Positions 12,360-49,701 are shown, counted from the whole stretch's first letter. The stretch is DNA of 61,961 bases, filler included, from Basidiobolus ranarum (GCA_040143965.1; 5 parts of 5 records of this genome joined end to end with filler, not necessarily neighbours in it); one strand, 5' to 3'. Notes: generated by a model from the sequence alone, not told the origin. Translations and numbers: made by a program.

Positions 12360-12459
12360 NNNNNNNNNNNNNNNNNNNNNNNNNNNNNNNNNNNNNNNNN
12401 NNNTTAATTAATTAANNNNNNNNNNNNNNNNNNNNNNNNNNNNNNNNNNNNNNNNNNNN
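12360..12459. other. Artificial contig spacer N44-TTAATTAATTAA-N44
   Basis: 100-nt spacer with stop codons in all six frames, repeated identically four times in the window. Confidence 0.98.
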
Positions 12460-12552
12460 TGTCAACTTTCTACTCAATAAATCAATAAGTGAAAACCACC
12501 AATTCCTCTAATTCTCCAAACCACTTCCAACAGGCTCCCAAATACTTTAACA
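12460..12552 (+). repeat. 3' part of a Copia-type LTR at contig start
   Basis: Nearly identical to 28713-28804 (TGTCAACT.TCTACTCAAT...CCACTTCCAACAGGCTCCCAAATACTTTAACA). Confidence 0.85.
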
Positions 12553-13168
12553 CTATGTTGTTGGCACTTCTGAGAATGTGTAAACATTTGATGCCACCAC
12601 ATGATAGAGTTAATGGCCAGAAGAGATAGTACAGTACTGCAATTGGAATAATATATAGTAAACCATTGGATTCTAAAAAATTGAAGCATTCCTGGGAGTG
12701 TTATATTTTGTCATGTTTGAATATATATATATTTACAATATTCACAGAGAACTGAATACCATTTTCTCTAGATGAATTATGAATCAATATACTGGTAGGG
12801 CTCAGATGAAAGTAGTCAATTGGGGAAGACATGAATCACTATCACTCTAATGTAACAGATGTTGATAAGTCCATTAAATTAGCAAAAAAATTGTATGATT
12901 TATTTATTAAGACAAGCTCAAGTATTTGATCCTTTACCGACCTAGGACAAACAATGTGATAGAGTCTATATGTACCAAACACCAGGAAGCACCCGCTTAT
13001 CACATATAGCTCAAGTGCCAAACATTGAATAGTAAAATAGAGGATGCCCATCGAAATAGACATGTTAAAGATAAAGCAATAGGAGAGGGGAAGAAACAGA
13101 AATAATTGAACTTCAGGTTGGAATGATTTCATAAGTCTATTTCAAACCCAAACAACTCAACATGCTTT

Positions 13169-16100
13169 CTACTCATCCTGATGTTTAGGCTTGGAAATAG
13201 CTCGAGTACTGGAATCAATTACACAGCTACTAGAATCACAATAACGCTCCATTTCAGGGTCCATTGCCTCTTCTTTGACATGACGGAAGTCAGGTTTTGG
13301 TATCTGAACTCCACCATCTGCCACCAAACGCTTCAACAACTTCTGATGGGTACGAGGGGGCTTGGGAGAATGTGGAGCAGGGTTTGAGATTTGAGAGGTA
13401 AGCCCATAAAAGGTCTCCTCATCTATAGCTTCATATGGCATCTGAGGATAGGCCCCGAGCGGTAGACGAGGCAAAAATGAAACTCCTATAAACTAATGTC
13501 AATAAAACTGTTTTCCAAGAAGAGACTCATTAATTAGGGTTACCTTTAAGTTGATATTGGAAATAGTTTAAAGCGTGTTTTAAATGTGGACCTTCAATCT
13601 CAGGATCAAGAGTTACAGTACAACTAACTTGGTTATCTGACCAATATTTTTGCATGAAGGCGGATAAACTTAACTGTTCCCACATGCTGACTTCTTTAAG
13701 CCCTCGAATTCCATCACCATGATCAATCGGAATCTCAACCACAACAGAATTAGGCTCCACTTGAAACTATATGTTATGATTGCTGTCATTGGATCAAAAA
13801 GAGTTGGTCACAACATCACTTACCAACATCTTGCTCTATCTTGTATCCAGCCTTACTTAAAGCACTGATCATTTCAGAGCCTTTGGCCAATCTCACTCGG
13901 CGAATGCAATACCGACTTTCAGGATAATGCATACCAGGCGTAGCTAAACATGAACCGGTTTGAATGATGACAATGATATTCTGACTGTTTCAAAGGGCCA
14001 CATACCTCCAGCTAACAAGGAAACTGTGCCACTTGGCTTCACAGTGGTGGTTTTTATAGAACGAGGGATACATAACCATTCTGAAACCCTAATAGAATAG
14101 AGGTTGAGGAAAGCTAATGCAGGCAAATGGAACTTGAGAACTCACTGCTTGTCGATTTGTTGGATGGCTTTATATCCTTCTTCACACCAATTCTTGAATT
14201 CATAAAGGCCTGTGAATTTTTAAAAATTAATCTCTACTTTTACGCTTTTGAAAATAGAATCAATACCTCTCTTGCTGATGAATTGAGCTATTCCACTGAG
14301 CCCGGTACCAATCCGACGATTTCTTAGCATAACTTGGTTGCTCTCTTTCCAATGAGTATTTCCTAAAGTGACAGTTTTGGCATAAAGAAAAGCAGATTCA
14401 AGTGTTTCCAAGAAATCTTCCAAAGAAGTGTGATTCGATGGAAACACCTCAACCAAGCAACAGAGTTCATATGATTCTAGAGTTTGCTCTAGACAAGGAT
14501 TACCACCTTTAGCTCGTACATCCTTCATATTCTGCGTAGAAAGTCAGCATCAGTGAAATCACTCAGCCATATAAAGAACATACCATTGGTTCACTCATAC
14601 GCCCGTAGTTACGCGCATTGTCTAACCAAGAAAACCCAGGCTCTCCATTCTTAACCACACGACTACATATTTTAGAGTAATCCATTCCTAGATGAGCAAA
14701 CACCTGAGCTCGGCTGTAAGCTAGTAGTTCCATAGAAAGAAACAGATGATAACTTACGGAATTGTTACTTGTCCAACCATACTCGCTGCGATGTGGATTA
14801 ACCTCATAGTTCTTCAGGTCAATATATTCATCGTCCAGAGGATCTCCAAAAGCAATTTCCGCAGTTCTTCTGATGTTCCCACTAACAACGCATTTCCCTA
14901 TTAAATTCATCAAGTCCACGATAGAAGTCACAGTCAAAGGTGCTCCAATGTTTTTGCTTAGTGTCGTGCGGATATGATCATGAAGGTCTATCAAAGGCCC
15001 TGGTCCAGAAGACAATCCGCCAAATCCCTAGTATCATCAGACATTTAATATGGAAACTAGTGCTTGAAAATAGACCCATACAATTACTTTGATGGGAGTT
15101 CCGGCAGGTCTGATTTGATCATAATTGAATTCCTTAATGAGATTGCAATGAACATCAATATCTTTGTCGAGCAACGAAAAAACCAGATCAATACATACAG
15201 GAACACTTAATTTTGGATCAAAGTAGGCATCGATTATAAGCTCGACAGATCTAATCCACCCTTCGATAGCATAGTGTTTAACAAAAAGAGATCACTACTC
15301 AGCAACGAAAATCGATCGGATTTACCTTCACGAGAGTCCGGTATAGTATACATTAAAGGTTTGGTAGAGTTAGGCTCAGTGACAATCTTCTCTCGTTCCT
15401 CAGCGATAGCTGCCCCCTTAGTATCAAAACCAACACCAACCCTATTAAAGAATACTTTGAGATCGAACCTTTCATAGTGCTTAAAAACTGACTACTTACC
15501 CTAGCATAGTGGCATCCATTAGAAATGTGAAAGGACGACTGGGAGCATTTCTACCGTCCCACATATTCTCTGTACTTACAAAAGCACAATTATTCAAAGC
15601 AGCAAAAATGCCGCGCTCTTCGGTTAATGGAGATCCCATAGCCCACAAACCTTCGATATAAGTTGTCAAGAATAACAGCATGGTAAATCTTCAAGTAAGA
15701 TCTGTACAAATAATTAAAATTAAAGGCACAAACCTCTTCCAGGAGGTAGAAACTTCATATTAAAAATTCGGTCATACATACGTTGTGCAGACATTTGTGC
15801 CTTGAGAGGAGTAAATTTAGCTGTCAAGAGACTCACCACCAATATGTAACAAACTGAATACCTTATATGCATCCCAGCCTAAATCATTTTGCTCAATCCA
15901 TCTTTTTTGCATGTTGTAAGTACCATTAACAACACGTTCCACTGTCTCCCACCTTTAGTATGTAAAGAAAATCAGAAATTCCCTTTCCATATTTTCAACA
16001 ATCTTTAATATAAGACGAACAATACTTTACCATTGCTCTCGTTCACCATTGGACTTTAAGCGAGAGTAAGTTCTTCGATAAACGAGTTCACCAAGGCCAT

Positions 16101-16362
16101 TGAAACCGAACGGGGGAATAGCAGTTTGATATTTTGCCAAAAAATTACCAGATAACTTGAAATCATTTTTAAATTTTAACAGGTTGACTGATTGTGATGA
16201 CTTGTGGCTCTCTAAGTCTGGAGTGAAGCTATTTTGTATTCGACAATTTCCAAGTATACTAAAAGGTCGAGTGGTTATAGCTCTAGATCTGCGCAGATAA
16301 GCAAAAGCATAGCCTACCGGTCTGCGCAATATGTGCTGACTTGATAATAGCATATATTGCAT
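13169..16362 (-). CDS. nrdJ: Class II adenosylcobalamin-dependent ribonucleoside-triphosphate reductase (monomeric RTPR type), about 14 introns
   Basis: Exons give YRRTYSR, WETVERVVNG, KFLPPGRGLW, LNNCAFVS, GVGVGFD, PDSREGW, GKCVVSGNIRRTAEI, NGEPGF, GNPCLEQ.LESYELCCLVE (radical Cys), RNRRIG, TTVKPSGTVSLLAG, DNQVSCTV, YPQMPYE and a C-terminal CDSSSC pair. Confidence 0.95.
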
Positions 16363-16955
16363 CACGAAGACCAACTATCTAGTCACTAGAGAGAGTTCTC
16401 AGCTGTATAACTAGTTAAAGACAAGAAGAGCTAATTTTACGGTTTCTTTAGATATCTACGATAAGAACAAAATGGTCAAGCGAATATCTCCTTAAAGCCA
16501 CTACTGAATATTTTACGTAGCCTAGAAAAGCAAGTCCCAATACTCAAACTTTAAAGCATATACGAATACCTCACAATCTAAGAAAACGACTGGTAGAAAT
16601 TAATCTGAATCTCCACCACAGTTTAATGCGATTTCACTAGCAAATATATATTCTACATCGAGAAGTGACAATTGCAGGAAATGTTATGTTAAATTCTGCG
16701 ATAATATAGATGAAGTTTTTCACATATCGGCATATTAAACACAGTTGAAATCTAGACATGGTTGAACCGTAGCTTAAATTAAGAGATTAGGATATATATG
16801 TATATAATAGTTACATAGGGCTGTGGCAAGCTTGAGGTCTAATACAAAAGATTCTTTATATACAATAGTTAAGAATTCTTCGTGGGTAGTAAGATGACTA
16901 GTTGACATTGCTAGCTGCATGGAGAATTAGCTATGTTGGTCAAGTTGAATTTAGC

Positions 16956-17144
16956 TCAATCCTTCTTCGAGGGCTTTTTAATAGCGCGATTGATCTCGTT
17001 TAGTTGATATACAACCGAATTCGGGATAGTGTGAACGGCGGTGTTTTCGGCCAAAAACTTCTTCATGCGTTTAGAAGCGCTCTGGGTGGAAAGTGACTTC
17101 GAAGAGACTACTTCAACACGGATGGGATGGACTTGACGCGACAT
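16956..17144 (-). CDS. 62-aa basic protein, possible minimal RNA polymerase I subunit Rpa14/Ker1-like
   Basis: Clean ATG-to-stop ORF. Pattern P-I-R-V-E-V strand, then an amphipathic helix ending KKFLAE, then SVVYQLNEINRAIK, resembles yeast Rpa14 (PVVIH...LESFIDE...SSISQLKRIQRDFK) as recalled. Confidence 0.45.
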   Translation of the reverse strand: MSRQVHPIRVEVVSSKSLSTQSASKRMKKFLAENTAVHTIPNSVVYQLNEINRAIKKPSKKD

Positions 17145-19252
17145 CGTAAGAGCAGCACTTGGTTACTATTCACTCGAAAGAGGAGAGCAACTAAGAATTT
17201 TGTTATGATAATCGTTGAAAAAAAATTATATTTTGACCAGATGGCAAAGAATCAACAATAATCTTAGAACCAAATAGTTTTCACTGAAATTTCGATTCAT
17301 TGGTTGACCAGTCACTGTGACCCTTAAAATTCTGCATTTTGTAAAACTGTTTATTAAATATTGAATTTTTATCTAATAAAAATATACAAGATGCAATTGA
17401 AGTCATAGCGACCAAGCAACTGACGAGCCTCACCTTGCAAAAAAGGCCGGTTCACGTATCATTACATTTGAATAGCGCTGTAGAGTAACCCATCGTACAT
17501 AACGATTATTTATGATGCCTCTAGGCATCATGGTGTTATTTGTAACTCCAGTTCTTGATGGTTCTCTCCTTCAGGCTGTATGACTAGACTCATCTGTGGT
17601 ATCAGCACCATGTAGCATCATAGATCACTTCTGATGATTGGAGTTATGCTGTATATATCAACAGGGCTAGCAGTACACAGCATATACAATCGCTGTAGCA
17701 ATATATATGGTATCAGCATCTCTCATTCGATTGCCAAGGATCTCTCAAGATTGTTCCTGTTCACAACGATCACATTGTCAGATATTCTCGTGAGCAAAGA
17801 ATTTCACTTGGTATCACACTTTGAAATCCTCATCCACTGCGATATCAAGACAGTATGATAATCCTATTTGGTAGGACTTCTTGGGGGGGGGGCTGAGTAT
17901 GGAGGCCACCACACTGAAAAATACATGATTGATGTTGCACTAATCTGGTATTTCAATTGAAGTGATTTTGGCACTTAGTTCTCAATATGGCTATAACCTT
18001 CTGCTGAGTACTAAATGATATAGTGTAGTGTAATGGGCCATGCTTAACGAGTGGTGAACCTCATTCTATACCAAAACTACTTGTAAACCGCACAACCAGT
18101 CTAGTCATCAAGGATATCCTCACATTCAAGGAGGTTAAGCGACACGAGGATCTCACTACTGGTGGGATTTCATTTCTAGCACAGAGGAAGCTATACTCGT
18201 ACGTCAAATAATAAATTCTACTAGGATTGGTCTGAGGATACCTTATTACTGAGTTTTTCACGTGTGAGAGGAACATTTCCTCATTACATGTGATACTGCG
18301 ACTTCTCAGTAGGTACATATACATATTGATGAATCACTTGAAGAAGACCCTGCAGCTATTTGAAATTTCTATTTCCTGTGTAGTGCCTCTATTGGGTTGA
18401 CTAGATATTAGTAGATCTGATATATTTGAGAAGTCTACTCTTCGCTTTACCTTGTCAAGAAATGATGGCTATGAGTAACGAAGTGGACAGTGAATTCGTA
18501 GCTGAGATTGTACTGCATTAGAGGAAGTTGTGTGTGTTTCCATCACAGAATGGCGTTAGTCACTAAAATCTCTCTGGAAAAGATAAAAGACCTCGGATAG
18601 AATGGAAGAGCCATTAATCGTAGCCAGTGCAATTTACTTGTACTACAACGATCTTTGAGAGCTACTAGTGAAACAGTAGTTAGGTAGCATCATCAATGTT
18701 TAACATCCCATACAGTAAAGTGATGTTGAAGTGCATTGCGCTGAATCAATTATTTAATACATTGACTGATTGCGTGCATGGAAGTTCAATAAAATGAAAA
18801 GTGCATACCGTTCTTAGAATTTAGTACTTGGAATGAAATCCACTGAAACCAATAAATAACATTTCAACCTCTTTTTTGTTTCTTAATCGTATCAATTTTA
18901 ACCGGCTCCAACAACATAGTTTTACCATTGATGCCTATTTCTACTCGTTTGTAGATAGATTTGTGCGCCCAGCCTCTCAATATGTACCAAGGTGGAGAGG
19001 TGGTTTTGCGTGCCTATACACAAGATTGTACGCTATCAAGAGAGCTGCTGTAAACAATCTAATATCGTCAATTTATTCCAACAGCTGATTCTGATATCTA
19101 TCCCAAGCCACTCATCAAAAGAGATTCTTAGAATGCATGAAACAAGGAATTTGCTTTGTAAACTGGGAAGTCAAACTAAAGAGCAGATATGTATAAGTAC
19201 ATAGGAAACTGCAGTAAGAGGAGCAATTAAGCTATCGGTATTTACTGTCACA

Positions 19253-19882
19253 ATGAAAGTGATTGCAATCATCTCTTTAACTATTTTCGTCTTGAGATTC
19301 GCTTATGACACGGACGCCTTGCCCACTCCGAATCTATCTATTTATCAATCTTCCAACGACAAACCGCTGATTTCTCACCCTACCTCTATGCTTAGCGATC
19401 TTTCCGATACAAACTCTAACCATTCTGGTGCACCAGACTTGGACCATACCCTGGAAAAACGTTTTTGGAACATGCGTTACTATTGCGGCGGCTTCGTTTG
19501 TGGACACTCCAAACGACAGGAAATGGCATCCGAGCCTGATAGAGGAAAAGATCCGGAGGCTTCAGATACGAAGCATATTCTTGAGGTCAACGCTACCCCA
19601 CAGCTATTCAACTTATTCAAGAGATTTTGGAACATGCGTTTCTATTGTGGTGGTTGGGCTTGTATCCACGCCAAACGTGAAGCATCTCCCAGGAAATCAG
19701 TTGCTCGACATGAACTCACACCCTATCACGTGGAATCGGCCAGTAAGGTTGAATCGTTGGACACCGTTAAACCAACACCTGTCGAGAGCTCGATAGGGAA
19801 AGATCGTAAGGAAAATATATTCAAACGTTTCTGGAATATGCGCTATTATTGTGGAGGTTGGGTTTGTGCACATACCAGGTGA
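19253..19882 (+). CDS. Secreted Kex2-processed repeat peptide precursor (KEP) with three Cys-x4-Cys 16-mer peptides
   Basis: Intronless 209-aa ORF with an N-terminal signal peptide. KR-FWNMRYYCGGFVCGHS-KR (19463-19510), KR-FWNMRFYCGGWACIHA-KR (19625-19672), KR-FWNMRYYCGGWVCAHT-R-stop (19829-19876). Confidence 0.92.
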   Translation: MKVIAIISLTIFVLRFAYDTDALPTPNLSIYQSSNDKPLISHPTSMLSDLSDTNSNHSGAPDLDHTLEKRFWNMRYYCGGFVCGHSKRQEMASEPDRGKDPEASDTKHILEVNATPQLFNLFKRFWNMRFYCGGWACIHAKREASPRKSVARHELTPYHVESASKVESLDTVKPTPVESSIGKDRKENIFKRFWNMRYYCGGWVCAHTR

Positions 19883-20693
19883 AAAATCTAGAGCAGTCAC
19901 TTGAAAATTCATCAACAACCGCCGAATCTAGTTTCTCTTAATATAATATTTAAGTTACCCGTGATTAATCAATAGAGCGTTAGTTTATTTCACGATTACT
20001 GTATTACCCTTTAATTTCGCCACCGTCCAATATATCCGTTGACACCAGATATAGTTTATTTATACTCTGAGCTAATCAAATAAACGAGCTTTAATGGCCC
20101 TCATGTATCTGGTAATGATCGACTTCTACGAGGGAGACACCTACATGATACATGTAATAGCGCAAAATGTTTGCCAAGAAACAGTCTCTACCTTGACTAA
20201 GGATTACATAACATCGCGGATGAAATTACGTCTTCGGAGCCCCACCATCGTCACCCCAAATACAACAGCCATTCGATTGAGCCCATTTGTTGCTAAATAA
20301 CTGGTAGCCATTCTGGTAATAATAGCAAGCCAGAGGCCATATCCGACGTGATCTCAAGGAGCATTGTGCACATGCCTGAGACCAAGTAATTCAGGTGAAG
20401 CCAATTCTACATTAGATCTCCAATAAGCCTTATCTTCCAGCTCGTGAGGATCAGGTGTCTACAAATAGACCGTCGAGACCTGATAAATTTAAAAATGAAA
20501 CATAGAGTGCGGAGCCTTTGTGGAACCTTGCTTATTTATCGATCGATGACAATTCCTAATTGGGGTTGATTCTGCATGCTAGAAATCGATTCTTTGGTGT
20601 TACGCAGTAGACCAATGTAGAGTTCAGTTTGGATGGAATTTGTCGTACAGCTATGGATAACACATTTGTTGGGTGAATGAATAATTTTCTCAC

Positions 20694-20700
20694 TATAAAA
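20694..20700 (+). promoter_or_regulatory. Putative TATA box of the desaturase gene
   Basis: TATAAAA about 60 nt upstream of the ATG at 20762. Confidence 0.4.
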
Positions 20701-20761
20701 CTATCTCTCCTCCCCATAGGCGCCATCATCCACGCCTATTTTTGGGATCGTTACTTCAAAA

Positions 20762-22228
20762 ATGGCTACAGGTCAGCTTCCTTTGACAGAAACATGCTCG
20801 TCGTTGTATTTGCACCTTACTAACTTGACTTATAGGTCTTCGCACATTTACTCGCGCCGAGGTTAAGGGATCTCAGGGAGATGGTCCTCTTTATACCATC
20901 ATTGATAACAAAGTTTACGATATCAGCGAATTCATCCCTGACCACCCCGGAGGTGCAGTAATCATGACACATATTGGAAGAGATGGAACCGATGCCTTCT
21001 ACTCTTTCCATCCGGAGTCATCGCAAGAAACCCTCTCCAACTACTATGTGGGAGACTTGGCCCCAGAAGACTGCTTAGATCAACAAGAAGGTAAGTTAAT
21101 CGTGTTAGTTTGTCAGTTTCTTCGTTTTCTCACCAAATCTATATAGATGACTTTATTCGTGAAATCAGAGAACTTAAGAGAGAGTTTGAAAGGTTGGGCT
21201 ACTTCGAATCTGATAAGCTTTACTACCTCTTCAAAGCTACCTCAACTCTTGCTCTCTGGGGTGTTTCCATCTACCTACTAGCTCGACATGGTGATAGCAT
21301 TGGGGCCCATATTGCCTCCGCTTTAATTATGGGGCTTTTCTGGCAACAATGTGGGTGGCTATCTCACGATTTCCTCCATCATCAGGTTTTCAAGAACAGA
21401 TCCTTCAATGATATGGTGGGTGATTTCTTTGGTGGCGTCTGCCTAGGCTTCTCCCCTGCTTGGTGGAAAAATAAGCAAAATACTCATCACGCCGCTCCTA
21501 ATGTACATGGTGAGGACCCCGATATTGATACTGTGCCCATCCTTGCCTGGTCCAACCATGCTCTAGAATTCTTCGCCGATGTGCCTGATGATGAGTTGGC
21601 CATTGCCATGGGCAAGTTCATGATCGGGAATCAGTCATTCTTGATCTTCCCTGTAATGGTTTTTGCTAAATTATCTTGGGCTATGCAGAGTATTCTGTTC
21701 ATTTTACCCAACGGACAGAAGGGATTACCTAGAAACGCCAGAGTACCCGTTGGTATCTTGGAACAATTATCCGTTGGCCTTCACTGGACTTGGTACCTTG
21801 GTTTACTCTTCCTCTTCGTTAAAACACCACTCCGTATTGCTCTGTATCTCTTCTTATCTCAAGGTGGATGCGGTCTTCTCCTTGCTTTAGTCTTTGTACT
21901 TAACCATAATGGTATGCCAGTTGTTACTGAACAAGAAGGATCTAAGATGGACTTCTACTCGTTACAAATTATTACTGGACGTGACGTTAAACCTAGCTGG
22001 ATAGTAACCTGGTTTACTGGTGGTTTGAATTATCAAATTGAACACCATCTGTTCCCTGCCCTTCCTCGCCATAGTTTCCACAAAGTTCAACCTCAAGTTC
22101 AAGCAATCTGTGAAAAATATGGCATCAATTATCACTGCACTGGTTTCGTTGATGGAACTATGGAAGTGGTTAATCGCTTAGACCAAGTTGCCAAAGTAGC
22201 AAGAAAATTGAATCAGAAACAGGATTGA
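20762..22228 (+). CDS. Cytochrome b5-fused front-end fatty acid desaturase (delta-6 type), 2 introns
   Basis: RTFTRAEV, IIDNKVYD, heme motif HPGG, His boxes HDFLHH, QNTHH (normally HNTHH) and QIEHHLFP. Close resemblance to Mortierella alpina delta-6 desaturase as recalled. Confidence 0.93.
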
Positions 22229-22929
22229 ATAGCTTCCAATTGAATCTATAGCCTGATTGGCTAACCACTCATTTGAAACCATTTTTAACCCAAGTCATGT
22301 ATAATTTAATATCTTATAAAGTAGATTTGCTATTTTATTCTGCAATTACCATATCTTATCAGTTCATCAAAAGTACTTAGATTAGTATGAAATATGACCA
22401 ATGGTGTTGGTCCATTTGACGAATTTGTAACAATTAGCAATCTATTGGTAGTCACACTGCTGTTCGATTCGAACAAAAGTCTTATCTGATGGAATTTATG
22501 CGATATTTCTTTCCGAACTGGATTTGGAATATTGTGGCAAAAATCGTTTTAGATTATTTCCCGCATCTGAGGTTAATTATATGGAGCCTGTAAAGTATGC
22601 CATTCTAAAGCCGGGGGTTTCTCGTTGACCAGTAAAACGGTTTAGGTTACAGCCTATTATGAAACTTGGGACAAATAGAAGGTCATTCAGTCCGTATATG
22701 GTAATTCTCGATGAAATACACATGTTGTAGCTAAACGTTTAAATCAGGATTGAGGTGTTCCCGTGTCTATGCCATAAATATACTAATCTATACGTCTCCA
22801 CGTTGAACATTAATGGCCAATTGAATATTTTTGTGGATGCCACAAATATGGGGACTGTTAGACAGCATCTCATTTGACATCAATGACATAGAAATAAAGA
22901 GAAAGAACATGTGATTTGATAGCAGTTAT

Positions 22930-23217
22930 TGTTGAAATTAACATAGCCTAAACATCTATGTAGTCATATATAGCTTAGTATTTAGTTGTTCCATATTTCA
23001 CGAAGATATCACTCACTATTCGAAATCGGAATTTACTTGCAAGATTTTGAAAACTTGTCCTAGAGGCCCCAAACTTTCCTGGGACCTTCCTTTACACATT
23101 CTACATGTTTGTTTGTTTACCCAACTATAAATGTCAACATTCCACTCAATAAAGGAATGAGTGAAAACCATCAACTCTTTCCTAACCAATTCCAACAAAC
23201 TCCAAAATGCTTCAACT
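22930..23217 (+). mobile_element. Solo LTR (Copia family)
   Basis: Begins TGTTGAA and ends TTCAACT (decayed TTCAACA). Flanked by near-perfect 5-bp TSD GTTAT/GTTAC. Homologous along its length to the 3' LTR at 28456-28804. Confidence 0.8.
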
Positions 23218-23526
23218 GTTACTACAAGGATTCTGACAATAGACGATGTTGTTATCTTGAATATGGAATATTGGCATTGAAATTTCATTCAAAATAAGTA
23301 GAATATGTTTAGATGGCTATATCAAAATAATGTCCTGAATGCAAAGAGTATGCCAGGTAGCCAGCTTTCCTTTAACAATAATGGTACTTGTAAATTATTT
23401 TATTGAGAGTTGATTACAAACAAGAATGTATGTATAAATTTGAAGGAGAGAAACATGGTCTCAATCCTTGCATGTGCAAATTTGCTATCAGCAATGATTT
23501 AATATCTTCATGTAAGCTTGGTTTCA

Positions 23527-24539
23527 TTAAATGGAATCTACTGTATCTTTCGATATCAAGTTTTCCAGTTCCATCTTTAGCTGGGCACAGAAATGGTCCA
23601 TGGGTAGGTCATTGGGGTCATGACCAAATGGATTTTCAATTTCTAAACTTATTTTTTCAATCCCAAAGAAAGTAAAGGAAGCAATGGCCATAACTGGTAC
23701 AGCCCAAAAACCTAGTTGGAAAACCAAGGTTGGGGGTAGAGCTATACAATACATGGTCAATATTTGCTTCAAATGTAGGTAGTAAGATCGTGGAATTGGT
23801 GTAGTGAGAATTCGTTCCATTTCGCTGAAGTTGGATATCATCGAGTTGACAAAAGCATTCATGTTAGTTAGTTGCCCATTGTCAATTTGATTTTGTTGGT
23901 GGAGCTGTCGTAGGTACGCAGTAATCATATAGCTAACTTCTAGAGGAGCACTTTGATTTGATCGTACGGATTTTGACATACTGACATTTGTAAGTGAACT
24001 GGGCAAAAGACTTTGAAGATCTGGATAATCCAACCCTGGTTCCTCTCGAAGTTGGTGCTTGACAGCTACCGCAAAGCCCACCAGCATTCTCATTAGGGTA
24101 GATTTAACGGTTTGATCTACAGGATTAGGTGAGCCTTGAGGAACGAAGAACCAAATCATACGATTGAAGTTTCGAATGGTGGTCGCAAGTATACTCCATT
24201 GAATACGCCCTGGCAAGTGTAGAAATGTTACAAATTATCAAGTATGTACATAAGAAACTGTAACATACCACTTGCATATCTCTCGTAAGCATTATTAAGA
24301 CGAAATGCCAAGAGAAGACCGGTTACCATGGAGAGTATAGAAATTACGCTAGTACTCATTAAGTTCCAATTACCCCGGGGCGCTATGCCAGAGGCCAATA
24401 TGGCGGTATATACAGTAAAGAAGCCGACATTCCCCAGTATCTTTGGAATTGCTGTTCCTTGGTATGTGAATATATCTAAGTCTTTAATATGTTTTCTACG
24501 AAGATGGTTGAATGAAGGTACACTGGTAGTTGAACTCAT
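23527..24539 (-). CDS. Bestrophin-family anion channel (UPF0187/YneE-like), 1 intron
   Basis: GLLLAFRLNNAYERYASG, intron GTATGT..CAG, then RIQW, AVAVKHQLR, MERILTTPIP.SY, FFGIEKISLEIENPFGHDPNDLPMD. Confidence 0.92.
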
Positions 24540-24787
24540 GATTATTGAACTATCTCCCTAGCCAAAGATAGTTTTATGCCTCAGTGACTGCCCCTTATAT
24601 ATAAACTGCTTCGTAGATTCAATTTTCGATGATTGGCTAGATGGTTAGTCATGCTATGCTACTACTGCATTATTGCGTATATAATTGCCCTATCATACGT
24701 AACTTGAAGATTTCCAAAATTGGTTGATTATATGATGATTTTGTGTGTTAAGCTACTACCAATGGTATGACACTACGAGAGGTTTGG

Positions 24788-24887
24788 NNNNNNNNNNNNN
24801 NNNNNNNNNNNNNNNNNNNNNNNNNNNNNNNTTAATTAATTAANNNNNNNNNNNNNNNNNNNNNNNNNNNNNNNNNNNNNNNNNNNN
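24788..24887. other. Artificial contig spacer
   Basis: N44-TTAATTAATTAA-N44. Confidence 0.98.
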
Positions 24888-26639: not shown

Positions 26640-28804
26640 AGCAGAATTAGTTGCTATGGCTGAATATCTGATGAATTGGAGTTTTGCTAGAAGTCCATCT
26701 AACTCTACACCATATCAAGCATGGTTTGTAGCTAAACCTGATGTAAAATATTTGGGGTTATTTGGATGCATTGCTTATGTCAAAATTATGAACAAAAAAT
26801 TGATCTATATTTAATCCAAAAAGTAAGAAATGCATATTTCTGAGTTATTGTTCTCAAATCCAGGCCTACAGACCTTATGAAACCAAAATATCTAAGTTAA
26901 TCAAGTCAAGGGATGTTGTGTAATATAAATGAAAAATTTTCACCCAAATCAATCTCAGATGATGACAAAAACCAATTTATCCTGATCCAAGCATTCAAAT
27001 TGAGTCAAACTAAGACAATGAATAAAATAGCATTCCTGTGGACCCTTCAACCACAATTTACCTATTGAAGTGCCCAATACAAAGCCAGAAGTTGTGGTAC
27101 CTTTATCCCAAACCATGAGATCAAATTGGATCAGAAACAGCCTTGATTACTATGTCAACAAGTCCCAAAATTGGGCCTATGCCTGCACAGGTCAAAGACA
27201 TGTACCCCAGACTGTACACAAGACCCTGAATGGCCCTCACACAAAATTTGGATATCTTCAATGGCCATGAGTACTAAGCTTTGGTTCATAATCAAATTTA
27301 GATTTTAACCAACTTAGCTCATGATAGAAAATCAATTGGCTGCCAACAGGTGTTTAGAGTTGAATACAACTCTGATGGCAATATGGAATAGTAAAAGGCC
27401 AGACTAGTAGCCAAAGGCTATTCCCAAACATGAGGAATAGATTATACAGAAACTTTGGCTCCTGTAGCAAACTTTAATTCAGTTAGATTGATTATAGCAA
27501 TTTCAGCAAATTATCAGTTTATTATACATCAATTGGATGTTGAAGCTGCTTTTTTGAATGGTGAACTTGCTGAGAAGACCTGTATGGACCAGCTAGATGG
27601 ATTTATGGACCCAGAAAGCCCTTAAAAAGTTTGCAGACTCTGGAAAACACTCTTTGGCGTAAAACCATCTCCAAGATCTTGGAATTGCATGATAGATACT
27701 TTTTTAGATACACTCACAAATCTTCACTTGACCAAAAATGGCTCAAATCAGACATTTTTGGATTCAAATGAAAACCAGAAATTTTGTTATCAATCAATGG
27801 TTGGTAGCTTGATATATATCATGGCTGGAGCACAGCAAGATATTGCATATTCTGTGGGAGTTATTTGCCAATATCTTCACAATTGTGGATCTGATCAAAT
27901 CATAGCAGTAAAGTGGATTTTCAGATGTTTGAAAGGGACTATGGATCTGTGCTTGAAATACACATATTCTGGATCAAACTTTAATCTGATGGGATATTCA
28001 GATGCAAATTGGGGAAGAGGAATTGAAGACAAGAGAATCACAACAGGATGATTATTTTTTTGCTATAATGGAGCTATTTCTTGAAATACAAAGAAACAAC
28101 CTACCATGCCACTTTTAATAAATGAAGCTGAATACATGGATGTCTTTGAAGCTACAAAAGAAGCAACAGAGTTAAGAATACTCTCAACAGATTTGGGTTA
28201 TTGTCACAATTCACAAACAAAAATATTCAAGATAACCAAAGTTGTATCAAATTAGCTAAAAATCCTATGTTTTATAAGAGAAGCAAACATATAGATAGTA
28301 ACATCACCTCATTGGAGAGATTATAGGGTAGAGGTTGATAGACTTCACATATTGTCCTACAGAGGACATGATTGCTGATATATTAACCAAACCACTAGCT
28401 GGATAGAAATTAGATAAATTTATAAAGTCTACACGAGTATTTAGTTGAGGGAGAGTGTTGAAATCAGCATTGCATAAAATACCTATATAGTCATATATAG
28501 CTTAGTACTTAGTGATATTATACTTCACTAAGATATTTTCCATTATTCTCAATTGGAATATAGTTAGAATATTATTACCAACTTGGAGGTTCTCAGATAA
28601 ATAGATTTTTCAAACTTTTGCCAGAAGTCCCAAACCTTGCACACCAGTCCCTAGGATCCTTCTTTACACATTCTACATGTTAGTATGCTTACACCTTGAC
28701 AAAATTATAAATGTCAACTCTCTACTCAATTAATGAATAAGTGAAAACCATAAATTCCTCTAATTCTCCAAGCCACTTCCAACAGGCTCCCAAATACTTT
28801 AACA
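26640..28804 (+). mobile_element. Decayed Ty1/Copia LTR retrotransposon (integrase C-terminus, RT, RNase H, PPT, 3' LTR)
   Basis: TPYQAWF..KPDV..L..FGCIAYV, KARLVAKGYSQ..GIDYTET.APVA, HQLDVEAAFLNG, YQSMVGSLIY, GYSDANWG, KHID. PPT GAGGGAGAG at 28447-28455 directly precedes an LTR TGTTG...AACA. Confidence 0.93.
28456..28804 (+). repeat. 3' LTR of the Copia element
   Basis: TG...CA termini, preceded by the PPT, homologous to 22930-23217 and 12460-12552. Confidence 0.85.
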
Positions 28805-28849: not shown

Positions 28850-30200
28850 GGCTGGAACTCAAAGCCTAAAACATCTAAATAAAGGCATGCATGTTAATTT
28901 CTATTCCTATAGCAGTAAGCCTAGTAATTTGCTATTCAAAAATCAGCATTTTGCAAAACCTTTGGAAATTGAATAACACATGGCAAATATTAGGATCAAT
29001 ATTTGACCATGTATGAGTGCTGTCAAAATCCAATCAAGAAGCTACCATATCACCATCAAAATCCTTAGTGGAATGCAAGCCAGCAATAATGTGACAGTCC
29101 TCTGATGATTTTGCAATTCCAAATGATGGATCCAATTCAGGATCAAATCAAATTTATTGTTGTCACAGGTCAAGATCTGTCTCCATTGGGATATATACAG
29201 GATTACATTCCTCCATTTAAACTCTTGAAGAATATCTAGGATACACTTAGACTATTCTAAAGTTATTGTTTTAATAGTCCTATCTATATTGATTTGGATT
29301 TCAAGATGGTACATCAGTTCACCAAGATAAGTCATTTTGAATTCTACACTTAAGTTTGGAATTGGTTCTATCCAAAATTTTAAGTCATTGGCTGCTATAA
29401 TGAGTTCATGTACTTGCAGAGCTACTAATGCTGTATTTCTCTTATTTGGCCTGAAGTAGACAAAAAAGCAGTTATAATATCCATTTGTTGCATAATACAC
29501 TGACATTTGGGTAAAATTGCCAAAACCAATCAAATTCAAATATGTATTGCTACAAGAGTCAAAGTTTCTGTATAATCAATTCCCAGCACTTGGGAGTTGC
29601 CTTTGGCTATCCGCCTAGCATTGTATCTTTCAATATTGCCATCAAAGATGTATTCAACTTTAAACACCCATTAGCAGCAAATTAATTTTCTATCATTAGA
29701 TAAGTTTGATAAAAGTGTTTAGGAGACTAGGAAGTGTTTTGGACAAGATTTGGACTAGTGAATTAGACACTAATGTTTTATTGATTTGAATATGTCCTAT
29801 ATTTATTTTTTTATAAGATAGTACTATTGGTCATGCTTTCATCATAACAAACATGCCTGTAAAGCATAGGTGAAAATTTGAGGTGATTTGGAGAAGTTTT
29901 GAGAAAATCATGAAAATTGGTAAAAGTGATCTAATTGATATTTCTATCAATTAGAGCAATAAACACACGTTTTTGAATGGCAGAATTGAGTGCTAAATAA
30001 ACAAAATATGAGTAAACTACTACTAAATAATGAGTTGCTATTTACCTAATTTCAACAAAGTTGTTTAAAATCCATGTATAATTATCAATCAAAGCCTTCT
30101 GCTCTTCAGGCATTGCAGATTTCCAAACTTTTGTGTAAGGGCCATGCAGCACCTCTTTTACAATCTGGGTGTATATACTGACCTGTGCAGGAATAGATGT
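28850..30200 (-). mobile_element. Second decayed Copia RT fragment, opposite strand, split by a nested solo LTR
   Basis: Minus strand: EVLHGPYTKVWKSAMPEEQKALIDNYTW, then the insertion, then DRKLICC*WVFKV, YNARRIAKGNSQVLGIDYTET and FKMTYLGELMYHLEIQI. Confidence 0.85.
29707..30057. mobile_element. Solo LTR nested in the Copia RT fragment
   Basis: TG...CA termini (TGATAAAA...TTTCAACA) with perfect 5-bp TSD AAGTT at 29702-29706 and 30058-30062. Removing it rejoins the RT sequence NYTWILNNL/SNDRK. Confidence 0.85.
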
Positions 30201-30673
30201 TGTTTATCATCGGCCCAATTGGAAGTCGTTGTTGGACTACTGGGATAAGTATTAGGCAATTTATCCTTCTCTAAAGTTGAAAGTTGGAGAAAGTTTCTAG
30301 TGAAGGAACTTGCTGCGAGTTTTAATGCAAAGAAACACCAGAAAGCTAGTAGAATGAATCCCACTGAAACCACAAATGAGCGAGCTATTAACCAAGGCTG
30401 TACTGTATCATGAGTACCCTTCATAATAGGGCCAATCTCTTTCATCACCGCAAGAATTATTAAACTAATGACATCGTCTAATAACGCAGCAATCGTGATG
30501 AGTACTGCAAAAGGAGTCTCCATTATACCTTGCTGACTTAAAAGCATTATTATGATTTCAATAGAGGTACTTGCTAATGAAGCAGAAGATATGACTGCTT
30601 CGAGTAAGCTAAATTTAAAGAGAAAGTGGCACATCAAAGTATCTACTCCGAAAGGTAACAAGGTTCCAGTCAA
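30200..30673 (-). pseudogene. Cation/H+ antiporter (CPA2/Na_H_Exchanger) fragment truncated by Copia sequence
   Basis: G.LLPFG, SLASTSI.I...LL...G.M.T...VLITIAALLDDVISLIILAV are CPA2 core motifs. No clear 5' exons, and the 3' end runs into retroelement DNA. Confidence 0.7.
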
Positions 30674-31380
30674 CGATTAGAGATAGGGCAAGTCAAGCAA
30701 CTTTAAATGTTGATGCATAACAATCCCTATTATTCCAGGTTTCTGTCCTATTGTCCATTTGATGTACCCTGAATACCTTCCTTTTTGTTTACCTCCTATC
30801 CCCCTTAACACTATATTCACAACCTCAGAACTTCACTGCATTGGTTGTCAAGTTAAGTATGGATATGATCCTGTACTATCACAATATCTCAGGAGATTGA
30901 TGTCTTAAATGTCACTTTTTTTAGATTATTATGTAAGCTATATAAAATCCACACCATCTGGTGCTTTTCATCCCCTCTAAAAATGCTTTGGCTTCAAGGG
31001 TACTGATGTCCTTTTTCAGTTTCATAATCAAAATGCACTAAAGTTAAGGCTTGCAGCTTTAATCTTGGCCATCAGACCTGAGTTGATATGAATACTTTAT
31101 TGAAGTGTAAGTTATAAAAATCTAAGGATTTCCCCTTCAATATTAAGCAGTTTTTCATGCAATCAATCTAATTTCAATACAAATATCCTTACAATATTCA
31201 TAGCTCTTTCCCTATGTTAAATTTGTAAGCACAATCTGATATTCCCAATAAAGATTCTGAAAGCCCAACCCTAACTCTTTTCTATGATTGTTTAATTTGA
31301 ATTTCAGTGTGTCTATTATTTTTTGTAATCACCTAATTTTAGGTTAAAACCCTATAATTCATTCGCACTCTTTATTATAA

Positions 31381-31845
31381 CTAGTTTCTGCATACTTCAA
31401 ATAGAAGAACACCAAATCCGACAGTTGACAAAATAGTCCTTACAAAATGTTTCTCTCCCCAAGATCTAATTAGGCTTTCAACATTAGGACTAGGATTATT
31501 TACTTTCATCGATAACAGTTGGTTATAGACTGGCTTGATACTGAGCATAGTAAACGCAAACGTTCCACCAAACAGACCAGCTGGAATTAGAAAGATTTGA
31601 CGTTTAGTGAGGTAGGTAGCACCAACGGTTGCAATAACGGAGGTTACAGCTAAAGCTGCTTGCATTGTAGCAGCTCTAGGGAAGAAAACTTGGAATTGAT
31701 TGACCATCTCCTTGGGTGATGCGACCATAAGTGCAGGGTGTTGAACATAAGAACAGTAAATTGCCGCACCAGCGAAGAGTCCTGATGAACCCAAGCTGGT
31801 AGCCTTTAAAACTTTGAGAAGATCGATTGCGTTGAAATTTGACAT
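31381..31845 (-). CDS. DUF1772/anthrone-oxygenase-like membrane protein
   Basis: Intronless 154 aa with four hydrophobic segments and motifs GLFAGAAIYCSYVQHPA, FTMLSIKPVYNQL and LIRSWGEKHFVRT. Confidence 0.8.
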   Translation of the reverse strand: MSNFNAIDLLKVLKATSLGSSGLFAGAAIYCSYVQHPALMVASPKEMVNQFQVFFPRAATMQAALAVTSVIATVGATYLTKRQIFLIPAGLFGGTFAFTMLSIKPVYNQLLSMKVNNPSPNVESLIRSWGEKHFVRTILSTVGFGVLLFEVCRN

Positions 31846-34800
31846 AATGCACGAATGTTAATTATAAGTGAGAAGAGTTCATTGATTTTATACTCGCTCC
31901 CATAGTATGAACAGTCATCCTTACTGCTGCGGATATATGGATATAATCATCCTTGCTCTAAACTGGATAGTGATTTACAGTGAGGTGGCGCCATTTGTAA
32001 ATACCAGGAACTTAATGATCCCGATGCTCCATATCGCAAAGCTCATCACTCTGTAGGCCTCTTTTCTCAGGAATGATGCGCATCAGTCAACGCCAAACAA
32101 ATGGTATTAAGTTATAGCATTGCCGGTCTGATAATTGCCATTGTCTTGCTAGAAACTGATCATTCACATTGGCATGCAAATAGAATTTATGTAAATAAAC
32201 GGTTTGTTTCAAATGCGAACTCTACATTGAAATTGGTTTCAGCACTGTAAGTTTTAATGCTTAGCCTTTTCTGCAAATATGTTTCTGATTGCGTTCATAG
32301 ATGATGTACTCGACCAATGACTGGATATTGTCCAACAATGACTTGGCGAACCACCCGCTCCAGAATTAGAGTCAGAACCATACATAAATGAGATCATTTG
32401 AAACTCTACCAATTTCGGCGGCTCTCTGTTCCTCTACACTAGAGTAGCGAATACCCGTTAACGAGTGGGTCAGAAATTGAATGGTCAAGGGCAAAGGACT
32501 TGACTTGTATGAGTTATGACAGCACGAAGTATATCATACCGACTCATGGGTGCATTACACTTGGCAATGACGGGCCATCATCAACTCGATTAGTAGCGAG
32601 CACTTTGCCTTCAACCCTCTGCATACTTCAAACCCCAAATATGAAGATAACCAGTGGCTAAACCATCTATCCAGGGCATGATTAGTTAGGAAAATTAGCT
32701 TACGATCTGAAGAAGAGATGTGACTGTAGTCATTAGCACATAAGTAGGATGCAAGTTAAAGCGAGGACTAGGCTTGATTCTACAAGGAATCTAAAAGAAA
32801 TACCATTTTTCTCCCTTTCAAGGTTGTGAGGTCTTCGTTAGTGTGATACTAATCCATGTGTAGGCTGTTATAACATGCACTTGTGTGAATCTAGTTGAAG
32901 AATACATGATAGGACTAACTAATCCGCGATTTCCCCGAACCGCTTCGAATTCATAGTAGCCCTGAGTAGCCATAGTTTAAAATAATGAGGAGGATGATTT
33001 TACTGGTAGTTTTTCCTGACCAGATATAATATTTTACAACGGAGGCAATGTGCGCCTAGACGCTAAAATTATGTTAGCTCTCTATTTGCCACAATGGCTA
33101 AAAACCAACATGTGATATCAGAATTAACCTGTGATAACAGTGGTAGATAGTACAGCCTTTTGGTCAAACAATATACTTGTGGTGTGGATGTTTAACCCTT
33201 TCTGGACAACTCTTAATCCTATCATTGAAACTTAGTTTCTCAAGAATAGGGTCAATTTTTTGACTCAAATGCGAACTACATGTACTCCTGACAAAATATC
33301 TCTCCGAAAATACATAGTGTATATGGATCATAGGAACTGAGAAAATACAAATGGTAAATGTACCATTTTTTGATACAAATTAGATGCTGCTTTGGTTTGG
33401 AGTCGGATATCATCATTGAGATAAATAGCATTTTCCCATCATAACATTTGAGAAGTCTTTATCTTTGTTGTCTACTTCTTCCTAGTTGATCTCATTAATA
33501 GAAAATGAATCATGTTCGTGATTATAGTCGTAATAATTATCGTTGTCAATGGTCCCAGTGCATGCAAGCATTCCCTTTTCCTGAATATCTCCAAATGCAT
33601 CTTATAACAGATCATGTGGCAGAAAGCATACCAACAATCTATGCTTACAGTGCCATTGGAGATACTGTCAAGTGAATACATTAAAGAGAGACCACATCAT
33701 TTCACATATAAGAACTCCCGTTCCTTTAAGACCATATTTTTGCCAAGTAATATTAGTAAGTACACATGGCTTTGTGTCCAGATATTAATGTCCGAACCAG
33801 AAGTGCCCTCTAAAATACAAGTGACAATCGGATCTCAAAAAGCATGAAAAAAAGCATGGCCAATATGAAGATAGAGAATGCATTCCTGATAATCTTTTTA
33901 GAATTTCAACACCTGCTAGCTTTTGCAAAGAGCCATTTTCCTTGCCTGTATTAAACTCAGGGACGAATCTCACTAAATTCAATTTACATGGTGGATATTT
34001 ACAAGGTATATTCGAATATTCACCTGGTTAATGATTTTAATATTGCCATCGAATAGCAAGGTTAACCTTAACGACATTTACAAACTTCCTTCGGATTAGA
34101 TTATAACCAATATTGTCCAGAATCCATTCTAGAAGATGCAAATAGACCGCAGAATGGTAGAAGCGATAGGAATCCAAACGAAAGTACTTTTAATTTCTGG
34201 GCGACTCAAGGCAATAACAAGTAATCTCATAGATTATTTCAATCTCGCTCCAATTGTCACAACAAAATATGCTCCTATCTACACACCAATGTACAAGGAA
34301 GTGGTGAACTGTGTTTTTTCTGGCGCTTATCAAGTAGCTCCTTATCTGAATCAGCTTGATAGTTATTCGACGCCACCACGGTTACCTTCCCATCCGTTAG
34401 TTGATGCTTTCGATTATCCACTCTGTACCAATCCATTTTCTTATTTCTCAACTTCCGCTTATTTGGCTATTTATGGTCATTCGGAAAATCCAAACAGCCC
34501 ACAGCCACATGAACGGGGAAATCAGAACGCTACAGTAACTTGATCATATCCTTTTATTCAACCGAAAACAAATTTTCTAAACAAATGTAACCGCAAAGAG
34601 CCATACGTGGATAGTTTGAAAATATCAGGGGAGCCTCTGTCCACGGTTTCCAATATTCGAGAACTTAGTTACAACCTTACGACAACTAGTGATCTAGGAG
34701 GCTCTTCAGGAAAAAACGTGCCAAGTCAAATACCACCCTCGATTTGTGAAATTTCAAGGTCAAATGATAATCTTTTGGATGTTTGATCTTCACTCAACTT

Positions 34801-37202: not shown

Positions 37203-37302
37203 NNNNNNNNNNNNNNNNNNNNNNNNNNNNNNNNNNNNNNNNNNNNTTAATTAATTAANNNNNNNNNNNNNNNNNNNNNNNNNNNNNNNNNNNNNNNNNN
37301 NN
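37203..37302. other. Artificial contig spacer
   Basis: N44-TTAATTAATTAA-N44. Confidence 0.98.
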
Positions 37303-39147: not shown

Positions 39148-40140
39148 CAATAGGGTGAACTTGTTAATTGCCACTCAACTCATCTCCTAGTCGCTCAGCT
39201 CTAACTTTTGAATAAGGGGCACTCTAAATGTCACGTGTCATGAGCTACATTAATTATAATTTCAAGTATATATTTAACACGCAAACCCACGAGTAATGTA
39301 CATCTCGAACATCACCATTGTATTAGCTAGACCTTCATTAACCTAATAAATCCCATACGTTAACGACTGAGGCTCATCAAGTATCTATTTTTGTTGCTAA
39401 CCAGATACCAAATCTCATCGTCAGACATGGAGCTCGATAGATCTGCGACCTAACTGATACCCACGCAGCTACGATGGCGGTAAATCTCTGGTCAAGCAAC
39501 AACGCCGCTTCAGCAATTTAACCAACACTGGGCCATCATTTCGAGGTATAGTGTATCGTTTGCCACGCTCCAACCACAAGTGAGTGGCAAATTATTCATC
39601 ATATCTGATTGGAAGCCAACTCACAATTAAAGAAATCACCCAAATCAGTACATTCCAATTATACTATTTTGTCAAGTCATAGAAATTGAATAAGTCATCA
39701 GGAACCTCGCCACTCTCGTTTAGATTTTGGTTACGGGGTAGTGATAGAGTCCAACTTGGGATGAGGTCCTTATTACTAACAAAGTCACAATCAACCCACT
39801 ACTTAGGCATTCGTCAGGAAAAAATTAGCAGTGTATTCAGGTTGGGCCATTTACGTCTAAAATCGTGGAAATATCTGCCCAAATTAATCTCAATCTCAAT
39901 TCTATATTTCAGTTTATTTTTACTGGCAGGTTATACTTCTCCTGGCATGCCATTGCTTGTAGTGCAATTACTCGTGCCCCAAGAAGCCCATTCTCTTGCT
40001 TAGCAATGCCAACGATAGAGTTGAATGGAAATCATAGTGGGATGATGGTTTTCAATATATAATCATTGAAGCCGTTGGCTATCTGGGAAAATCCAATATT
40101 TGTTTGTAGGCACCTACGCTCTATATCGAGTTCATACAAC

Positions 40141-49601: not shown

Positions 49602-49701
49602 NNNNNNNNNNNNNNNNNNNNNNNNNNNNNNNNNNNNNNNNNNNNTTAATTAATTAANNNNNNNNNNNNNNNNNNNNNNNNNNNNNNNNNNNNNNNNNNN
49701 N
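49602..49701. other. Artificial contig spacer
   Basis: N44-TTAATTAATTAA-N44. Confidence 0.98.

Follow-up and report, generated by a model that had tools for sequence, protein, structure and literature searches.

A predicted secreted Kex2-type precursor of three cysteine-paired 16-residue peptides, apparently confined to Basidiobolus

The closest described relatives, in layout, of the gene reported here are the Kex2-processed repeat proteins (KEPs) of fungi; the gene itself is a single-exon open reading frame (ORF) encoding a predicted peptide precursor of 209 residues, found in a 61,961-nucleotide stretch of DNA (the window). Two definitions of KEPs have been given. Umemura 2020 counts proteins with a signal peptide and at least three repeats, of at least 8 and at most 100 residues, between Kex2 sites (PMC7329392), and Le Marquer 2019 counts secreted proteins with no membrane segment that yield at least four fragments after KR/RR cleavage (PMC6339444). 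The Umemura survey reports 7878 KEPs in 1345 of 1461 fungal strains, forming 838 types plus 2560 stand-alone proteins, with most types found in a single genus (PMC7329392). KEP density is highest in Zoopagomycota, and the richest strain listed is B. meristosporus CBS 931.73 with 43 KEPs (PMC7329392). The same source describes KEPs as the precursors of dikaritin-type peptides that are made on the ribosome and modified after translation (RiPPs), and it places a DUF3328 gene near 22% of all KEPs and, in its Table 1, near 0 of the 185 KEPs of Zoopagomycota. In agaricomycetes, KEP peptides are reported to have been detected by mass spectrometry (PMC9769878). Since KEPs are common and most are genus-restricted, the gene is less rare than was implied by an earlier note on this DNA, which had read it as the precursor of three disulfide-ring 16-mers with a pheromone or hormone role.

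We found that the gene has the organisation of a secreted, kexin-processed, multi-copy peptide precursor, a prediction that the sequence supports well; it would be a precursor of the KEP type with a core apparently restricted to the genus Basidiobolus. Re-translation and alignment of the units returned the same ORF coordinates, core sequences, number of invariant residues and codon differences as the earlier note, and the signal peptide (by hand rules), the pro-region and the KR-bounded repeated cores that it had described are all present. The ORF runs from ATG to TGA in a stop-to-stop frame that opens at 19205, has no in-frame ATG upstream of 19253, and matches in the alignment the start and stop of both homologues described below. 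As in the Umemura definition, there are three 16-residue cores with 11 invariant positions, two of them bounded by KR on both sides and the third by KR and R-stop. As in that of Le Marquer, cleavage at the five KR sites of the mature part would leave six fragments. By hand rules, the protein and both homologues have a signal peptide and no transmembrane segment. Among the 90 ATG-initiated ORFs of at least 60 residues in the window, three pass a crude filter (a hydrophobic N-terminus and at least two dibasic sites) and the precursor alone has repeats. The ORF, the repeats and the site positions are read directly from the DNA, as are the conservation and the purifying selection that follow. That the gene truly encodes a secreted precursor of the kexin type from which the 16-mers are cut, with each processing step predicted, we consider very probable.

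The three KR-preceded 16-mers follow the consensus FWNMR[YF]YCGG[FW][VA]C[GIA]H[SAT], and 11 of the 16 positions counted on the alignment are the same in all three. Cores 1 and 2 have KR on both sides; core 3 has KR before it and R-stop after it. A chance origin of the repeats is excluded: the two most similar non-overlapping 16-mers agree at 14 positions, compared to a maximum of 9 in shuffled versions of the protein (0 of 2000 reach 14). A six-frame scan found the core motif nowhere else in the window. The core peptides carry a net charge of about +0.8, are 31% aromatic and have a grand average of hydropathy (GRAVY) between -0.09 and 0.34. Their calculated average masses in the reduced state are 1927.2, 1962.3 and 1994.3, and those of the 16-mers of the two orthologues described below are 2024.4 and 1990.3.

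At the DNA level the copies have diverged. Synonymous variants are found for Gly (GGC/GGT/GGA), Arg (CGT/CGC), Asn (AAC/AAT), Cys (TGC/TGT) and His (CAC/CAT), and AGA is also used for the Arg of the KR sites. When the copies are compared in pairs as units of 60 nucleotides, 15-19 bases differ; at the codon level, each pair shows 6-8 synonymous and 5-6 replacement differences. The 60 nucleotides 5' of each unit do not align between units (global scores -7 to -14), in agreement with the claim that the spacers are unrelated; the exception is a short N-[LI]-F-K-R preceding cores 2 and 3. Over the KR and the core (18 codons, Nei-Gojobori method), the proportion of synonymous differences (pS) is 0.61, 0.81 and 0.96 for the three core pairs compared to a proportion of replacement differences (pN) of 0.18, 0.09 and 0.13, values that are rough with about 9.5 synonymous sites per comparison but plain in their direction. 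Synonymous sites are near saturation and replacement sites are not, which indicates that the peptide sequence has been held for a long time. The core copies are thus old and under purifying selection and do not stem from a recent duplication, as had been argued from the codons, or from gene conversion.

The features expected of secretion and processing are present as well. For the signal-peptide call we used hand rules based on Kyte-Doolittle hydropathy and a (-3,-1) small-residue site. The second residue of the protein is K, its hydrophobic core spans 11 residues with a mean of 3.03 and its sole (-3,-1) site follows residue 22, and this layout (basic residue 2, 11-residue core, site after residue 22) recurs in all three family members. 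Beyond residue 30 the 19-residue hydropathy peaks at 0.10, and none of the three members has a later hydrophobic segment. All five [KR]R dipeptides of the protein stand at core borders. At the sites upstream of a core, an aliphatic residue stands four positions ahead of the cut (L, L and I here, I and I in the homologues), which is a known preference of Kex2. No Gly precedes the KR sites and there is therefore no amidation signal. No X-A or X-P dipeptide follows them: the cores start with F-W directly after KR, leaving no STE13 step of the kind that marks ascomycete alpha-pheromone precursors. The six cysteines of the precursor make up exactly three Cys-x4-Cys pairs, one per core, for which a disulfide ring would be the simplest fate in an oxidising secretory pathway; given a real kexin-type precursor, the ring is probable.

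Only two homologues were found. Among proteins of near length, a word-indexed search brought up 27 candidates, of which three, the query itself included, were at E<=1. The other two are the hypothetical protein K7432_000260 of Basidiobolus ranarum (P0002, 169 residues, E 4e-18, 32% identity) and K493DRAFT_89725 of B. meristosporus CBS 931.73 (P0003, 180 residues, E 1e-14, 28% identity), the latter labelled 'Secreted pr...' by one source. None of 182 longer candidates and not the single shorter one was related in the same search. A profile of the three proteins run against 1.84 billion representatives matched six proteins at E<=0.001, three of which are the family itself. The three others, long repetitive proteins of 887-4814 residues, were matched in the spacers and without the core motif, and we rejected them as compositional. 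Metagenome contigs gave 0 matches to a degenerate DNA pattern of the core, as did a set of prokaryote genomes with one per species, and there is thus no sign of a bacterial origin. A search of metagenomes for related loci gave 108 stretches matching a short pattern, none of which was confirmed by tblastn. Within these searches, the family seems to be confined to Basidiobolus-type fungi, from which the window too would come, and in the alignment the signal-peptide region of our protein is closest to that of B. ranarum. This agrees with the early-diverging fungal host that had been proposed; the comparison with Mucorales and their trisporoids that came with it is beside the point, the relatives being Basidiobolus.

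The three-protein alignment separates the cores from the rest of the precursor, the spacers and the pro-region being unconserved. Each homologue closes with a dibasic site (I-F-K-R or I-L-R-R) and, between this and the stop, a 16-mer that matches core 3 at 14 or 15 of 16 residues; across the C-terminal cores of the three species, 13 of 16 positions are invariant. The homologues end exactly at core residue 16 and our protein adds one R, which would fit a trimmed 16-mer as the mature form. Upstream, the homologues contain decayed core-like units (P0002 residues 96-111; P0003 residues 59-74 and 111-126) that align with cores 1 and 2 and keep the skeleton [L]-W-N-x3-4-C-x-G-x-x-C. These units are preceded by K-G, K-L or E-G where our protein has K-R. 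The expectation that homologues would conserve both cores and KR sites is therefore borne out for the C-terminal core, which follows KR or RR in both species, and fails for the upstream copies, which have decayed and have no dibasic site.

This contrast is the strongest indirect evidence for processing in our analysis. Eight core-like units are found in the three species: the five with a dibasic site are 12-16/16 identical to core 3, and the three without are 6-7/16 identical (Fisher exact p = 1/56, the units not being independent). Conservation goes with the dibasic site, as would be expected if the excised peptide is the functional product.

Neither the precursor nor its core could be placed in a described family. 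With E values accepted up to 10, Pfam gave no alpha-factor or pheromone family and a sole match to Anti-LPS factor/scygonadin (PF11630; residues 109-156, E 0.011). At 16.3 bits against a gathering cut-off of 25, and covering a spacer and core 2, we rejected this membership. The PDB offered a sequence match in the pro-region at E 0.86, also rejected, and nothing else that was credible. AlphaFold2 on the three-row alignment predicts the signal peptide and short helices only (mean predicted local distance difference test score, pLDDT, 33.6), and the ESM Atlas's own model of the precursor has a pLDDT of 0.44. No fold is predicted and conservation is limited to short islands, a combination that suits a pro-peptide. 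Atlas look-alikes by whole-protein features score 0.79 at best, within the range reached by shuffled proteins, and a query with the core alone gave no usable match.

The literature gave a similar picture. In open-access text (articles without their supplements), 'FWNMR' does not occur in a peptide context, as judged by title and abstract, and among sub-strings of the core only 'CGGFVC' matches a peptide, in engineered deletion variants of plectasin (PMC10771296). 'CGGWAC' was set aside; judged by their titles, the metabarcoding and environmental DNA papers that print it probably refer to DNA primers, and the string also occurs in a 1992 paper on the NuMA protein. For Basidiobolus combined with KEP, pheromone or RiPP, the Umemura survey was the sole relevant match in the open-access literature, and no printed Basidiobolus signal molecule was found there. 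The core sequence thus appears to be new with respect to the families and the text searched, and the earlier statement that it belongs to no characterised family stands.

From these features we propose the following route. The N-terminal 22 residues would direct the precursor into the endoplasmic reticulum (ER) and then be removed, and in the ER the Cys-x4-Cys pair of each core would be oxidised to a six-residue ring. A Golgi kexin would cut after each of the five KR sites, and a Kex1-type carboxypeptidase would trim the trailing K/R, including the single terminal R of core 3. Three aromatic-rich, weakly basic peptides of 16 residues would thereby be released outside the cell, where they would bind a conserved partner specifically. 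Their likeliest role would be that of a ligand by which cells of the fungus signal to one another, for sexual, developmental or density-related purposes.

Taken as a whole, this explanation, a secreted KEP releasing three ring peptides that act as a self-signalling ligand, has in our judgement a little under an even chance of being right. The ligand role of the 16-mers on its own, predicted from conservation and composition, we put forward tentatively and with slightly less confidence. The core is near invariant while the precursors are otherwise 28-32% identical, which argues for a specific ligand. The low net charge and the high aromatic content favour a ligand over a cationic membrane-active peptide. 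More narrowly, the FWNMRYYCGGWVC-type 16-mer might be an endogenous Basidiobolus hormone or pheromone that has its own receptor and controls conjugation and the formation of zygospores, conidiation or the sensing of density, a version that we regard as doubtful. A pheromone or hormone role, for which architecture and conservation speak, is plausible on our analysis but had been overstated in the earlier note.

Several observations weigh against a signalling ligand or against repeated processing. Knock-outs of kep genes in Coprinopsis are reported to have no detectable phenotype (PMC9769878), so that signalling cannot be predicted from KEP architecture. The comparative base is thin, with three family members in the databases searched. 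Each of the two named species has one dibasic-flanked core, so that the repeat character is not conserved and one peptide would be predicted in each. The freedom of the spacers from dibasic sites is not significant, since 59% of shuffled spacers also have none (P = 0.59). Finally, neither the contig nor the window as a whole gives any hint of a receptor or of a mating locus.

Among the alternatives, defence survives best, although we consider it unlikely. Here the same processing would release weapons or defences against bacteria of gut or soil, other fungi or small animals, disulfide-clamped hairpins that act on a conserved microbial target. KEP peptides have been suggested to act on the biotic environment, with knock-outs lacking a phenotype (PMC9769878), and the Umemura survey offers the hypothesis that cyclic KEP peptides are toxins (PMC7329392). 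Basidiobolus is described as living in the crowded amphibian gut (PMC10386755). The lone Pfam match is to Anti-LPS factor/scygonadin, but it is under threshold and lies on a spacer and core 2. Similarly, the Y-C-..-G-G-F-V-C stretch loosely resembles the hairpin at the C-terminus of plectasin, a fungal defensin, but the exact CGGFVC string comes from engineered variants and not from a natural peptide (PMC10771296). A charge of about +0.8 is unlike that of typical cationic antimicrobial peptides. The near-invariance of the core would be more natural with a fixed partner than in an arms race, but it is also compatible with a target that is itself conserved, for example a cell-wall precursor.

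Further tailoring of the cores, as in a RiPP, bears on what lies next to the gene. The window is made of five pieces, each about 12.3 kb long, with N44-TTAATTAATTAA-N44 linkers between them (12360-12459, 24788-24887, 37203-37302 and 49602-49701), and true neighbours are found only on the gene's own piece, 12460..24787 (12,328 bases), with about 6.8 kb upstream and about 4.9 kb downstream. We scanned against Pfam 13 of the 15 ORFs of at least 90 residues on this piece, the two left out being 19371..19796, an alternative frame within the gene, and 24289..24561, antisense to the bestrophin gene. Enzymes encoded elsewhere might, for example, cross-link the aromatic residues of F-W-N-M-R-Y-Y or make thioethers of the cysteines, and the final product would then differ from the plain disulfide 16-mer. 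Tyr, Trp and Phe abound in the cores, KEPs include dikaritin-type precursors with DUF3328 genes nearby in about a fifth of cases (22%; PMC7329392), a wealth of secondary-metabolite genes is reported for Basidiobolus genomes (PMC10386755), and the contig reaches only about two genes to either side. However, the scanned ORFs yield ribonucleotide reductase, cytochrome-b5/desaturase and bestrophin and no tailoring enzyme: DUF3328/UstYa, P450, methyltransferase and radical-SAM families are all missing among the 13. With respect to DUF3328/UstYa, the Umemura survey looked within 15 genes, and a more distant gene than the 12.3-kb contig can reveal is possible. The survey's own count for Zoopagomycota is 0 of 185 (PMC7329392), and 16 residues with 13 invariant is long compared to known dikaritin cores. 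We therefore judge a tailored product to be quite improbable.

A marginally less probable option is a structural or uncut product, either a wall-associated or surface-active protein or peptide set, or else a small secreted protein that stays whole and has three Cys-loop motifs. Ustilago offers a parallel in its repellent peptides, which coat aerial hyphae. Our peptides are likewise aromatic-rich and, by their GRAVY values, hydrophobic, most core-like units in two of the three species have no dibasic site, and Basidiobolus conidia are described as aerial and forcibly discharged (PMC10386755). Nevertheless, the units without a dibasic site are precisely those that have decayed, which is unexpected for a functional intact protein, no fold is predicted and the spacers are unconserved.

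The Cys-x4-Cys ring has the size of that in some animal hormones, and the likeness to oxytocin and urotensin II noted earlier is limited to this, with no animal peptide family matched in Pfam or PDB. A hormone mimic acting on a vertebrate or insect host receptor in the gut is accordingly very improbable, even if the producer is described as living in animal guts (PMC10386755) and insect multi-copy neuropeptide precursors figure among the Atlas feature rows, since the Atlas scores of 0.75-0.79 are within the shuffled-protein range and the core-only query found nothing usable.

Returning to the self-signalling ligand, its interest lies in the lineage. Fungal peptide signalling is well documented only in Dikarya; in fungi of zygomycete grade, small lipophilic molecules, for example trisporoids, are the sexual signals known. 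If the proposed role is true, this would be the first peptide signal of its kind shown outside Dikarya, with a threefold dose in the window's species and one active copy retained in its relatives, and it would open up communication by peptides in a fungus that diverged early, dwells in guts and occasionally causes disease. If the peptides are instead antimicrobial, they would provide a compact new scaffold. Either way, the 16-mer is short and easily synthesised, and it is near invariant in three Basidiobolus-type genomes while the rest of the precursor drifts to about 30% identity. As matters stand, the gene is one uncharacterised KEP among thousands, though an unusually clean one. The parts of the precursor and the neighbouring genes are given in Table 1.

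Table 1. Positions of the precursor parts and of the genes on the same contig (window coordinates)
Feature	Position	Strand	Remarks
Whole precursor coding sequence	19253..19882	+	209 residues plus stop, single exon
Predicted signal peptide, residues 1-22	19253..19318	+	K2, hydrophobic core 3-13, cleavage after T-D-A; hand rules
Pro-region, residues 23-68	19319..19456	+	Poor conservation; two N-x-S/T sites
Dibasic KR site 1 (L-E-K-R)	19457..19462	+	
Core 1, FWNMRYYCGGFVCGHS	19463..19510	+	
KR 3' of core 1	19511..19516	+	Presumed kexin cut, then presumed Kex1-type carboxypeptidase trimming
Spacer 1, residues 89-122	19517..19618	+	
Dibasic KR site 2 (L-F-K-R)	19619..19624	+	
Core 2, FWNMRFYCGGWACIHA	19625..19672	+	
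KR 3' of core 2	19673..19678	+	
Spacer 2, residues 143-190	19679..19822	+	
Dibasic KR site 3 (I-F-K-R)	19823..19828	+	I-F-K-R in B. ranarum, I-L-R-R in B. meristosporus
Core 3, FWNMRYYCGGWVCAHT, orthologously conserved C-terminal core	19829..19876	+	14/16 and 15/16 identity to the C-terminal 16-mers of P0002 and P0003
Terminal Arg codon and TGA stop	19877..19882	+	In the homologues the stop directly follows the 16-mer, one residue sooner
Ribonucleotide reductase large subunit fragments	12842-16374	-	RNR_Alpha 16027-16374 (E 2e-11); barrel domain 14220-14543, weak
Cytochrome-b5 domain	20829-21146	+	E 6e-20; about 0.95 kb downstream of the precursor
Fatty-acid desaturase domain	21095-22228	+	E 3e-38; frame overlaps the cytochrome-b5 ORF
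Bestrophin, bacterial/fungal type (PF25539)	23527-24557	-	E 1e-54; two adjoining ORFs

On the contig, several ORFs without a Pfam match lie between the ribonucleotide reductase fragments, which suggests a gene that is divergent or has multiple exons; between these fragments and the precursor lie about 2.8 kb with no convincing ORF. The region 20829-22228 (+) suggests a b5-fused desaturase of the front-end type with a short intron or a frame change near 21.1 kb, and the split of the bestrophin ORF is presumably due to an intron. No kexin, RiPP-type transporter or receptor was found among the scanned ORFs, and the four other pieces hold nothing relevant either.

Outside the gene's own contig, the window contains a weak fragment of a Ty1/copia reverse transcriptase at 27626-28051 (+), a Na/H exchanger fragment at 30158-30676 (-), an anthrone-oxygenase-family ORF at 31381-31857 (-), a polysaccharide lyase 14 at 40063-40998 (+, E 9e-69), a Pif1 helicase fragment at 47658-48068 (+), an allantoicase at 48933-49649 (-, E 5e-58) and an ORF of the GH5 cellulase family at 57869-59386 (-). 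Two further ORFs on one of these pieces, 41604-43181 (+) and 43679-45316 (+), of 525 and 545 residues, have no Pfam family and are mutually unrelated; the first has a signal-peptide-like start. These retrotransposon, exchanger, lyase and other ORFs do not bear on the precursor.

Several known systems share parts of this design. Animal multi-copy prohormones are, like our precursor, disordered proteins with several peptide copies released by KR cleavage and carboxypeptidase trimming, a parallel described in the KEP survey (PMC7329392). Arthropod allatostatin, tachykinin and pheromone biosynthesis-activating neuropeptide (PBAN) precursors are among the Atlas look-alikes, with scores in the noise range. 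Unlike such prohormones, the precursor has no Gly before KR for amidation, and no homology to them was found.

The dikaritin precursors of ustiloxin, asperipin-2a and phomopsin have in common with our gene a signal peptide and Kex2-bounded, aromatic-rich repeated cores (PMC7329392). They differ in their DUF3328/UstYa gene and enzyme-made ether links, whereas the cores described here are much longer and their cysteine pair suggests a simple disulfide.

The alpha-pheromone precursors of ascomycetes are likewise secreted KEPs with short, Trp-rich repeated cores whose copy number varies between species. In Sordariomycetes, Leotiomycetes and some Dothideomycetes the alpha-pheromones have two conserved cysteines, as our cores do, with a wider spacing in the examples printed than the x4 found here (PMC6339444). 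These pheromones belong to a Dikarya lineage with STE13 signatures, whereas our precursor lies outside Dikarya and has no such signature.

The nearest comparison remains that with KEPs in general, from which the gene departs in some respects. Its units are set apart by long unrelated spacers and are not strict tandem repeats, and its two Basidiobolus orthologues, with a dibasic site at the last unit only, would probably be left out by a three-repeat definition. The core is unlike the types described, on a comparison with the main text of the surveys; for example, S-3, the sole Basidiobolus type in the text of the Umemura survey (PMC7329392), is rich in Tyr and Asp, and our cores contain no Asp. 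In restriction to one genus, and in having no DUF3328 neighbour found, the gene resembles most KEP types and all reported Zoopagomycota KEPs, respectively (PMC7329392). With KEPs as defined in the two surveys, it shares the signal peptide, the lack of a membrane segment, the KR-bounded repeats and a core length that falls in the commonest size class of 9-24 residues (PMC7329392, PMC6339444).

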